Shown: piece by piece, positions 15,001-18,000 of the stretch
Layout of the letters: the number at the start of each line of letters is the position of its first letter
Position numbering within the stretch: position 1 is the first letter of the stretch
Source of the DNA: Candidatus Hydrogenedentota bacterium
Lineage (GTDB): Bacteria; Hydrogenedentota; Hydrogenedentia; Hydrogenedentales; SLHB01
NCBI GenBank assembly: GCA_045863295.1
Contig: BTWA01000004.1
Span: 128,001 to 192,000, forward strand
Reading direction: 5' to 3'
DNA length: 64,000 bases
Program-made: the position numbers

Positions 15001-18000
15001 CGTCTACTCGGTGACAACCGTGCAGGAAGAGATTGGCCTGCGCGGCGCGACTACGGCGGCCTACTCTGTGGAACCGCACGTGGGAATCGCCGTCGACGTG
15101 AATCACGCGACAGACCACCCGGATGTGGACACGAAACGGTATGGCGCCACCAAACTGGACGGCGGACCAATCCTCGCGCGCGGGCCGAACATCAACCCCG
15201 TCGTAATAAAACAATTGTTCGACGTGGCGAAAAAGAAAAAGATTCCATACCAAGTCGATGCGGAGCCGCGTGGCACAGGCACGGACGCAAACGCCATGCA
15301 ATTGTCGCGCGGAGGAGTAGCCACAGCGCTGGTCGGTATTCCAAATCGCTACATGCACTCCCCAGTGGAAATGATTTCGCTCAAAGACGCCGAGCAGTGC
15401 GCGGAACTGCTGGCGGAATGGATTGCCACCTTAAAACCGGGAATGAGCTTCATTCCCTGAAGTAGAAGCGGCATCCTGTCGCTTTATCGTGTCTCAACGC
15501 AGAAGGCGGCGGATTCGTTGAAGATCAATGGTGTGTGAAAAGATGCGAAGGCCAACAGTGGTTCTTCGATCCGTGTATGCGGCGAAACGCCGCTACGGCT
15601 ATCCGGGGAGTTTGGCAATCATGAGAGCGATGTGGACAGGCTTTTTCCTATTGGCGATCCCGGCCTTCGCAACAGGGGTTCCCGCGGACAACTATCCGTC
15701 GTTGCAGGAAGCCATCGATGCAAATCCCGGCAAGATGGTGGAACTGGGACCCAATGACTACGTAATCGGCGCCGCACTGCGCATTACGTCGAGCGGCGGC
15801 GGGCTGTGCGGATACGGCCGCATCGTCATGACCAATCCCGAGGAATCCATTATCCACGTAAGACAGACGCGGGACGTGCGCATCGAGGACATTGCCCTTA
15901 CGCGATCGGAAGGCGCCATGGACGCGTTGAGGCACGGCATACACGTCGAAAAGTGCGCCAACGTACAGATTGACGGCGTGCAAGTTATCGACAACCGCAG
16001 TCAGGCGGGCACGATCTTCTTTGAGGAGTGCACGGACAGCCGGGTTGTGAATTCGACAGTACTCAATTACAAACGGATCTGCGTGGATGATCGAACCGCG
16101 AGCCCGTTGTACGGATATGCATTTAAGGTTATTGATGGCACCGGCATCATGGTGGTGCGCAGCCAGGGCATGCAGGTTGTCAATAACCGCGTGCTGGAAC
16201 GAAACATCTATCCGACCGAGGAGACCAAGAAGACCTTTCAATTGGGTAACTTCACCGAAGGAGCGAATCCCACCCAGAAAGGGCAACTCGCCCCGCCCGG
16301 GGAGTACGCAAACAACTGGCATCAAGGTTCGGCCATCACGGTGTCCGCGCCGCTGGAAACACGCCATGTGCTTATCAGCGGAAATTACATTGAAAACGCC
16401 GCCCAGGGCATTGACATGCACGGTGATCACATGACGTGCAGCAACAACATCATCGATCACGCATTCATCGGAATTAAATGCATGCACGGCTCGAAGAATG
16501 TGATCATAACCGGCAACAACGTTTCCCACATGGACCTCTGGGGACTGATCATGATGCCCGGCACTCTGTCTCACCCCGCGCAACCGGCATCGGGCGATCA
16601 ACCCGCCAAGCCCGCCAATTTCACCAGCGGCAATATTATCTCCAATAATATCTTTGCCGATTTCGGCTTCGGCTATGAATATTTCAATTGGAAAGGAAGT
16701 AAAGGCGGCGTAATCAGCCTCGAGTCAGGACAGCTAGCGGAAAACCCGGTGATGTTCGACGTGTTGATTCAAGGCAATGTGGTCTACGACACCGGCCGGG
16801 ACGAAGTGCTGGAGAACGGCGTACCGGTTAAAGCCGATCCCCGCTACGAGTACGCGGTATTCATGTCTCCCGAACCGCGCCCTAAGGGGTTGGTGTTCCG
16901 CGACAATGTGTTCCATCCGGGCCGCGGTGGCATTTCAAATCTGCCGTTGGAATAAGTCCACGCTGCCTTCGCATGCGCCGGCCGCGCGGCATCCTCAAGT
17001 ATCGTCTGCGCGATTACATTTTTGTACCTCGAAGGGCACAGCGCTACCTCCCTGGGAGTAGCTGTAGCGTGTGAACACTGCGAAATGACCACCCTAATCC
17101 TCGCAATGTTCTCCATGAATTACCGTCCTGTAAACAGCGCCAACCAATCCGACAATAATGTCGCTGTTTTCGCGGCACACACGTTAACCCTCAAGCACGG
17201 CGAATCGCTTCAACTCATCTATTCAAAATGAGTTATAGCAAAACACCGCCAAACAAGACAGACTTGGCACACCAGTTGCTCTAACAGAAACGTCGATGCG
17301 GCAGCCCCCAGAAGGGGCGGCAGACAAAGAAAGAATTGAATCATGGAAGGGTTGAACGGACAAACCGGATACCCCGCACCCGTGGAAACGGGTGCCGTTT
17401 CCGAAGCCAATCCGCTGATGGCGCGCCTGATGGACGCCTCGCGATCATTTGGGTTCGGAAACTATGAGTGGCCCTCTCTCCCCTGTACATTCGTGCAGGG
17501 TGCTGTTGCTGACTCCGCCACCTAAGACTCCGGCCGCGCAGCGCTACACTGGCTCCCTCGACCGAATGCTAAGCCCGGAGTATTCGGAAGCGCTGCGCGG
17601 CCCTTCCCCCCTACACCAAACGGGGCCTTAAGAAAGCCCCGGTTCGATTTTGCATACATGCTGGGGAGCGCTCCAGAGTATCGGGGCGCTCCCCCTCCCC
17701 CCCCCCTTCTAAACGACGCTGAGCGTTCACCAAACCGGAAGTCAGTACTGCGTCTCCACCCTCACCGTTAGGGGATGCGTTGCGTCGATAATTGCCTGCG
17801 TGCTCAAGGACACCGTTACCGTATCGCCGTCGCGTGTCGCGGCCGCTTTGATTCGACGGCGGCCGTACGTCGCCAAGACGTTCTTCACCATTGAGCCGCG
17901 TGCAAGGGTCAACGTCAACCGGTTCAGGCCGACATTGCCGTGGACCACGCGCACGTGGTTCGTTTGCACCCCGTGAGTACGCTCCTGCCCCACTGTTCCC

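Follow-up and report, generated by a model that had tools for sequence, protein, structure and literature searches.

The window, a stretch of 64,000 nt from the genome of a Candidatus Hydrogenedentota bacterium (G000), harbours a small structured RNA between a beta-helix gene and a convergent gene for a glycoside hydrolase of family 116. The features of the locus, in window coordinates, are the following.

9524-10852, minus strand: ispG, synteny marker of the locus in relatives
17015-17026: distal TAC-N6-GTA palindrome, possible second activator site, 250 nt upstream of the -24 element
17121-17132: TAC-N6-GTA, candidate activator site, 144 nt upstream of the -24 element (5.1 bits, modest)
17223-17235: IHF-like bending site between enhancer and promoter (modest support)
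17265-17279, plus strand: sigma54 -24/-12 promoter, TGGCAC-N5-TTGC, with a predicted start near 17291
17343-17525, plus strand: ORF for a predicted small protein of 60 aa with the helix motif [DE]xNP[LVMI][MLIF]x[RQ]A (NPLM at 17409-17420)
17472-17500, plus strand: C/U-rich leader and hairpin 1 (17481-17500), a genus-level part of the RNA
17505-17531, plus strand: hairpin 2 (17505-17521) with loop UGACUCC (17510-17516) and linker GACUCC (17526-17531), extra CUCC motifs
17532-17602, plus strand: core unit, with outer helix (17532-17544/17590-17602), asymmetric loop, inner helix (17562-17569/17580-17587) and terminal loop
17551-17558, plus strand: GGCUCCCU in the asymmetric loop of the core
17573-17576, plus strand: GCCC in the terminal loop of the core
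17603-17613, plus strand: C/U-rich 3' tail
17621-17641, minus strand: terminator-like hairpin assigned to the convergent gene, outside the conserved RNA
17742-21503, minus strand: glycoside hydrolase family 116, convergent neighbour, so that the RNA leads no gene here

The core of the RNA is one bulged hairpin of about 71 nt. All 35 copies share its unpaired motifs CUCCC (asymmetric loop) and GCCC (terminal loop), the only invariant letters of the core, while the stems vary freely and both the spacing between the motifs and the length of the inner helix are nearly fixed. An earlier note on this DNA had described two invariant unpaired segments; GCCC stands as described, and of the C/U-rich segment only CUCCC is invariant, as the flanking GGC of the bulge is replaced by GAC or AGC in five of the 35 copies. 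In the predicted fold of the window copy, the CUCCC stretch is exposed only in part (unpaired probability 0.45-0.96), which counts against the base-pairing reading given below.

The core folds with a z-score of -5.02, and none of 200 shuffles was as stable; the values were -3.97 for a 181-nt region of the window and -2.8 to -6.3 for six diverged cores. In the 35 copies aligned by the covariance model, an alignment that hence leans towards it, 19 of 21 pairs change on both sides (0 of 500 shuffles reached as many) and 95.6% of the cells pair, against 31-43% in slid controls. Double-sided changes were found in 11 of 21 pairs when 22 copies were aligned with MAFFT. Read on the plus strand, the core copies contain 30 G-U and six A-C oppositions, so the strand, previously deduced from the promoter, no longer depends on the promoter alone. 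As reported before, Rfam 15 gave no match at the gathering score in the window and 14 related loci (best E-value 1.2). The folded RNA is a real and new family of small RNAs, predicted to be transcribed from a sigma54 promoter, in line with what the earlier note proposed, and it occurs also without an accompanying ORF.

All parts of the previously described structured RNA of about 145 nt are present in the window. However, this longer form is not the conserved unit, since its two small hairpins are confined to genera g1, g13, g17 and g18. Among 14 full-length copies, five of the seven pairs of hairpin 1 change on both sides, and hairpin 2 is nearly invariant in sequence without covariation. Over the full-length form, double-sided changes affect 12 of 36 pairs, all outside hairpin 2; the double-sided change once given as 14 of 36 pairs in 11 sequences is thus upheld at a different count. 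The tail behind the core is rich in C and U across the copies (332 of 374 bases). The hairpin at 17621-17641 has no common counterpart 3' of the RNA in relatives and belongs to the convergent gene as a terminator-like site.

The consensus sigma54 promoter recognised before in the window and at 17 of 22 loci is present upstream at all 26 first-unit genome loci with upstream sequence. In a GTDB scan, a sigma54 site was found within 500 nt upstream of 16 of the 19 real matches, the other three being cut short, and upstream of none of 66 chance matches. Further upstream, the palindrome TAC-N6-GTA occurs within 300 nt of 28 of 29 RNA or ORF promoters (shuffles: mean 1.6, maximum 6), a count made on the same promoters in which the motif was first noticed by eye. 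Upstream of the -24 element, most copies keep a distance of about 114 or 144 nt, with pairs spaced by about 30 nt in nine promoters, and spacers other than N6 were found in at most three of the 29. The distal palindrome of the window is less certain because it lies outside this -114/-144 cluster. Two loci, L142 and G116, were detected through the RNA pattern and the peptide profile, respectively, and both possess the sigma54 promoter and TAC-N6-GTA, although the promoter was not used in finding them. With an IHF-type consensus, a site with at most two mismatches was found in 22 of 26 promoters (shuffles: mean 12.4, maximum 18).

The short ORF behind the promoter was present as claimed, but in the window it does not precede the whole RNA: it runs through hairpins 1 and 2, and its stop is a few bases short of the long hairpin. 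Most relatives have the stop 50-80 nt ahead of the core. ORFs of about 54-85 codons with the [DE]xNP[LVMI][MLIF]x[RQ]A motif were found at 22 of 26 promoter-bearing genome loci, which confirms their presence and replaces the former count of 15 of 22; the background of the motif is 117 in 17158 ORFs (0.7%). All 22 aligned proteins keep the N and the P, the remainder outside the motif being unconserved, and the codons of these two residues vary (AAT in 12, AAC in 10, and all four proline codons in use). This synonymous variation under invariant residues shows that selection acts on the peptide, so the ORF encodes a real small protein. The search of 18 small proteins against Pfam revealed no family and no DUF1127 match, and ESM Atlas contained no match. 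A profile search of 1.84 billion proteins gave 12 matches, of which seven were inspected: four belong to the NP-helix family, and the other three, judged by eye, resemble translated CRISPR-type repeat arrays (two) and a repeat-bearing neuropeptide precursor (one). The seven inspected matches show no spread beyond the NP-helix family.

RNA and ORF also occur separately. The RNA lies behind its promoter without an NP-motif ORF at four of the 26 genome loci (G091, G112, G117 and the second G033 locus) and in the first unit of L142, as the earlier note had stated for some relatives, and the ORF is found without the RNA behind it in G084 and G116. These loci weaken the view of the RNA as a mere 3' UTR element of the ORF.

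The RNA is present in 25 of 135 Ca. Hydrogenedentota genomes, namely G000, 23 of the 53 other genomes of its family, and G033 from another family; several RNA-negative sister genomes are fragmentary, and kin are not independent in this and the other counts across relatives. BLAST over the 135 genomes detected 21 at E<=0.01, and two covariance models of the core gave 26 and 27 genomes (27 of 135 at E<=0.5). Two of these were dropped as false, namely G119, which lacks both CUCCC and GCCC, and G001, in which the match lies inside a long coding frame; the earlier figure of 24 genomes therefore becomes 25. With 32 candidates scored per genome in the model searches, the second covariance model added no further true genome, and 36 stretches of DNA 3' of ispG contained no further RNA. 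A GTDB scan with an exact pattern, which fixes the outer stem and may miss diverged homologues in other groups, returned 85 stretches of which 19 are real, all assignable ones in this phylum. Of four matches in a metagenome scan, one is a new sequence type. No match to the RNA was found in the viral contigs and plasmids searched.

One locus per genome is the rule, and G000 has one copy. The RNA is modular: five genomes carry tandem units behind one promoter, as noted before, with two in G108 and G110 and three, rather than two, in G122-G124. The middle unit of G122-G124 has wholly different stems and keeps CUCCC and GCCC. Two separately promoted units exist in G033 and in the metagenome locus L142. 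The sites of the RNA are not unrelated as had been thought but partly syntenic, since RNA and ispG lie less than 25 kb apart on one contig in 12 of the 25 genomes. In six of these 12 the RNA lies about 0.6 kb behind ispG, which suggests that this site is probably ancestral. The next gene is convergent in the window and, judged crudely by the longest frame, at 17 of 25 loci, so the RNA is no leader: at none of these places does it precede a gene on its own strand, as a riboswitch would. A further candidate, 6S RNA (RF00013), was rejected, the 6S RNA of G000 being on another contig.

TAC-N6-GTA is not restricted to the RNA. Four of 105 strict sigma54 sites in G000 carry it, those of the RNA, glnK-amtB, amtB-glnK and a second activator-like gene, and it occurs in 2.8% of random 300-nt windows. 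In sets independent of the motif finding, it was found ahead of a sigma54 site at 22 of 30 amtB loci and upstream of 33 of 40 PII genes, mostly in glnB-glnA operons. A third such set is the leaders of an activator gene, of which 20 of 27 orthologues have it, over an apparent sigma70 -10 box (three of 30 loci were too short to be included). The encoded GAF-AAA+-HTH protein passes the TIGR01817 NifA cut-off; its gene adjoins amtB-glnK in G000 and is present in 117 of 135 genomes. The single genome G084 (94% complete, 790 contigs) lacks an activator match, the RNA, and the motif at its amtB, glnB and small-ORF promoters. The genes glnA, amtB and glnK are induced by nitrogen limitation. Since the motif is common to the RNA, glnB-glnA, amtB and the activator gene, the RNA very probably belongs to the nitrogen-assimilation regulon, and it would be induced by nitrogen limitation. 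Sharing its control switch with ammonium-scavenging genes, it probably helps the cells to cope with nitrogen shortage.

TAC-N6-GTA is the binding consensus determined for AnfA of Rhodobacter capsulatus (PMC7294313), and the NifA/AnfA-type activator is the likely protein to bind it here. Similar to AnfA as presented in the accessible part of that paper, it is a GAF-AAA+-HTH sigma54 activator with TAC-N6-GTA in two sites per promoter, a likeness resting on domain architecture and these sites. However, AnfA drives Fe-nitrogenase genes (PMC7294313), whereas here the motif precedes glnB-glnA, amtB/glnK and the small RNA. The first 190 residues of the activator contain one cysteine, unlike the GAF cysteine motif of AnfA and VnfA. 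Nor is there a linkage to alternative nitrogenase genes, as the search for nitrogenase components was negative in G000 and in four of five relatives; the nitrogenase-like genes of G091 have no TAC-N6-GTA enhancer. Searching plasmids for an AnfA relative turned up an unrelated regulator.

The invariant unpaired CUCCC of the core is complementary to ribosome-binding sites. Among 4882 genes of G000, taken from simple gene calls made here, GGGAG occurs in the ribosome-site window of 526, compared with 43 in a control window, and AGGGAG in 145 compared with six. Complementarity of CUCCC(U) to this real variant of the ribosome site suggests anti-Shine-Dalgarno (anti-SD) pairing, and our main reading is that of a trans-acting, Hfq-independent, base-pairing small RNA of the nitrogen regulon. 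Under nitrogen limitation, the GAF-AAA+-HTH activator of the NifA/AnfA family would bind TAC-N6-GTA and switch on the sigma54 promoter of the RNA together with those of glnB-glnA and amtB-glnK. The transcript may consist of the RNA only, or it may double as the message for the small protein, predicted to be mostly disordered with one conserved helix. The stable core hairpin would present CUCCC(U), supplemented by further CUCC motifs, C/U linkers and tandem copies. Pairing would need no Hfq and would cover GGGAG-type ribosome-binding sites on several mRNAs, the translation of which would be lowered; GCCC may serve as a second contact.

A search for Hfq found none. GGGC, the complement of GCCC, is not enriched at ribosome sites of G000 (264, against 325 in the control), and a ranking of duplexes between five unpaired segments and 4882 start regions yielded no outstanding match. 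No conserved target was found among glnK, glnB, glnA, the activator gene, ilvE, groES and sucA. The glnK leader has a perfect AGGGAGUC site in G000 only, sites in ilvE and groES are not kept in five relatives, and sucA carries both complementary motifs in the right order in G000 but not in 29 relatives. The leaders of glnB, glnA and the activator gene contain nothing specific to RNA-bearing genomes. The near-fixed length of the inner helix is more readily explained by a contact with protein or a tertiary contact than by a free seed. It also counts against this mechanism that the regulon is phylum-wide whereas the RNA was found in 25 of 135 genomes. Because of the lack of a conserved target among the seven genes, the absence of GGGC enrichment and the near-fixed spacing of the motifs, we give the base-pairing mechanism as a whole a probability of about 50%.

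A rival reading under the same nitrogen control is a protein-binding decoy or scaffold. It is favoured by the two motifs, which stay invariant and almost constantly spaced while the stems vary freely, by the three diverged tandem units that retain both, by the finding of no conserved mRNA target and by a GCCC that is not anti-SD. CUCCC and GCCC, one helix apart, would then be the two halves of a binding site for an RNA-binding protein, for which the co-encoded small protein is one possibility, and tandem units would add sites. GlmY is a sigma54-driven decoy RNA and thus a precedent. Another is the small protein CcaF1, described as binding its co-transcribed RNAs (PMC8034643, accessible part). 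No candidate protein was identified, though, and the existence of RNA-only and ORF-only genomes means that the peptide is no obligate partner. CsrA and FliW are present in G000, but CsrA needs GGA, of which the A in the loop is kept in 21 of 35 copies; CsrA, found in 104 of 135 genomes, moreover does not follow the distribution of the RNA. A CsrB/RsmZ-type sponge was rejected, the loop GGA being incomplete in 14 of 35 copies and the GGA-rich minus strand disfavoured by 30 to six. We regard a protein-binding decoy as possible, if rather doubtful. A related proposal, which we put forward as a tentative and slightly weaker one, is a lineage-specific nitrogen-starvation effector pair. In it, the two C-rich faces of the RNA, multiplied by tandem units, would dock a protein or structured RNA in an undescribed mode, and the new one-helix protein would be the second member; both would be controlled by the AnfA-type activator, serving this phylum as a general nitrogen regulator without nitrogenase.

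The position of the ORF just upstream of the RNA at 22 of 26 promoter-bearing loci and the C/U tail after the long helix would fit a 3' element acting in cis on the small-protein mRNA, in its stabilisation, processing or termination. Nevertheless, this is unlikely given five loci where the RNA follows its own promoter and enhancer without an NP-motif ORF and two ORF loci without RNA; a terminator, moreover, needs neither invariant loop letters nor tandem units. A compact fold in which the motifs meet as a pseudoknot or kissing dimer, binding glutamine or 2-oxoglutarate or cleaving itself, is conceivable insofar as the bulge GGC could pair with GCC of the loop and the sixth position of GCCCGG, a stretch containing the palindrome CCGG, is G in 31 of 35 loops. 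There is no covariation for such a contact, however, and copies with GAC or AGC in the bulge retain GCCC; no riboswitch or ribozyme model matched, and the convergent next genes (17 of 25 loci by the crude call) leave no leader position, which makes this fold a still less likely solution. The varying neighbours and tandem copies might recall a small mobile or repeated element without a cellular role, a most improbable reading that is largely refuted by the rule of one locus per genome, the synteny with ispG in 12 of 25 genomes, the lack of viral-contig or plasmid matches and the conserved, regulated promoter.

Returning to the base-pairing reading, the closest known counterparts are the cuckoo RNAs, including NfeR1 of Sinorhizobium meliloti, which is Hfq-independent and induced by nitrogen stress (PMC10746234), and CcsR1-4, encoded with CcaF1 in Rhodobacter sphaeroides (PMC8034643). 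According to the accessible parts of these papers, NfeR1 and CcsR are Hfq-independent with an anti-SD action. Like the RNA described here, this cuckoo/alpha-r14 group displays invariant C/U-rich unpaired motifs on variable stems, and its members (NfeR1; CcsR1-4 with CcaF1) have tandem sibling copies and a small-protein gene on the same transcript. By this comparison, the RNA most likely acts like NfeR1 and CcsR, with anti-SD seeds and a small-protein neighbour. The groups are distinct in other respects. Cuckoo RNAs are simple hairpins with CCUCCUCCC loops, whereas here CUCCC is in an internal and GCCC in a terminal loop. Their neighbour is a DUF1127 protein (CIN1 subgroup), in contrast to the unrelated NP-helix protein without DUF1127 match. 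NfeR1, as far as described there, lacks a sigma54 promoter, whereas the present RNA, from another phylum, has one with an enhancer.

In its predicted control the RNA resembles NrsZ of Pseudomonas aeruginosa, a small RNA of nitrogen limitation with a sigma54 promoter and three similar modules with a conserved loop (PMC4253122), and GlnZ of Enterobacteriaceae, which arises from the 3' portion of a transcript under nitrogen control (PMC9731577). The sigma54 promoter of the RNA comes with an enhancer common to glnA and amtB/glnK. Yet the RNA, though probably controlled like both, matches the defining features of neither. NrsZ is driven by NtrBC, consists of 40-nt stem-loops and activates rhlA; its loop motif ACAGGCAG is absent from the 35 aligned cores, and the accessible part of PMC4253122 reports no co-encoded protein, whereas most loci here have a small protein. 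GlnZ depends on Hfq and RNase E, is cut from glnA and represses sucA (PMC9731577, accessible part). In contrast, the RNA has its own promoter, no Hfq was found, and 30 sucA leaders contain no conserved site; the closest association with glnA is in G091, where the RNA lies about 3 kb behind it. In the literature searched, mostly open-access main texts, neither the RNA nor such a regulon in Hydrogenedentota is described, and the accessible part of a Hydrogenedentota genome paper (PMC10866078) does not mention the RNA.

The small-RNA family, the small protein and the outlined nitrogen regulon with its upstream activator site are new here. For an uncultured phylum, this defines a regulatory RNA and predicts the signal that induces it. 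The pattern of a small protein and a C-rich small RNA under nitrogen control apparently arose again, with another fold, protein and activator than in Proteobacteria. The apparent control of glnB-glnA and amtB-glnK by a NifA/AnfA-type activator and TAC-N6-GTA may matter as much, most genomes checked with this regulon being without nitrogenase. All components, from promoter and enhancer to activator, RNA and peptide, are short and defined by name, which makes each step testable.

Parts of the region are also found as contigs in four metatranscriptome runs (X1-X4). X1 covers 17010-17238, upstream of the promoter, and X4 covers 17264-17495, across it, so that both may be DNA. X2 (17457-17601, six differences) and X3 (17454-17593, five differences) come from one rhizosphere study and have depths of 2.3 and 2.9, the contigs giving no ends, strand or level. 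Their upstream parts are too diverged to align with the window, which shows that in close relatives the RNA is better conserved than the ORF. One of these two contigs ends at the base of the outer helix.

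The NifA-family activator appears to act as the general nitrogen regulator in a phylum whose members are for the most part non-diazotrophic. It was found in 117 of the 135 phylum genomes, and the predicted activator site TAC-N6-GTA overlies the promoter of the activator gene itself, being also present at glnB-glnA and amtB/glnK. The window's genome additionally encodes a second activator-like protein:

C27:49093-50661 (L219:794-2362), NifA-family activator with GAF-AAA+-HTH organisation
C27:50946-51929 (L219:2647-3630), second activator-like protein

The second protein lacks the sensory domain and has a degenerate GAFTGA loop. 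Its recognition helix is nearly identical to that of the NifA-family activator, and its own gene lies downstream of a sigma54 site and TAC-N6-GTA. This protein could act as a competing repressor.

Genome G091 harbours two nitrogenase-like component genes, together with NifB-like and NifH-like genes (C18:228000-246000, L369), surrounded by genes for cysteine metabolism, all named by eye. The TAC-N6-GTA enhancer was absent at these nitrogenase-like genes, whose role is probably not nitrogen fixation. Genes for the NP-helix small protein were also found in the absence of the RNA, in G084 (L314) and G116 (L323), with no enhancer sites in the former and two in the latter.

Within family f1, sucA is present in 19 out of 31 genera, and all RNA-bearing genera except g28 are among them. 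As related genera are not independent, this co-occurrence may reflect ancestry only.

Three records titled 'uncultured Nitrospiraceae' (L030, L068, and L099) carry RNA copies identical to those of the phylum genomes G033 and G107, and judging from these sequences the titles are probably mislabels. In G095 the core hairpin of the RNA occurs in two copies (L119 and L138), each at a contig end, corresponding to either a duplication or an assembly break. The loop CUCACCUCC of the hairpin preceding the core in G100 (L130) matches the usual 16S anti-SD.

Further features were observed near the RNA in the window, the two genes being identified by eye and located 5-6 kb from it:

17663-17694, second hairpin, apparently perfect and with a run of C after it, located in the stretch that separates the RNA from the GH116 gene end; no counterpart was seen in relatives
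22483-23337, lone flagellin-like gene
23706-25268, dnaB

The RNA of genome G117 is found immediately downstream of dnaB.
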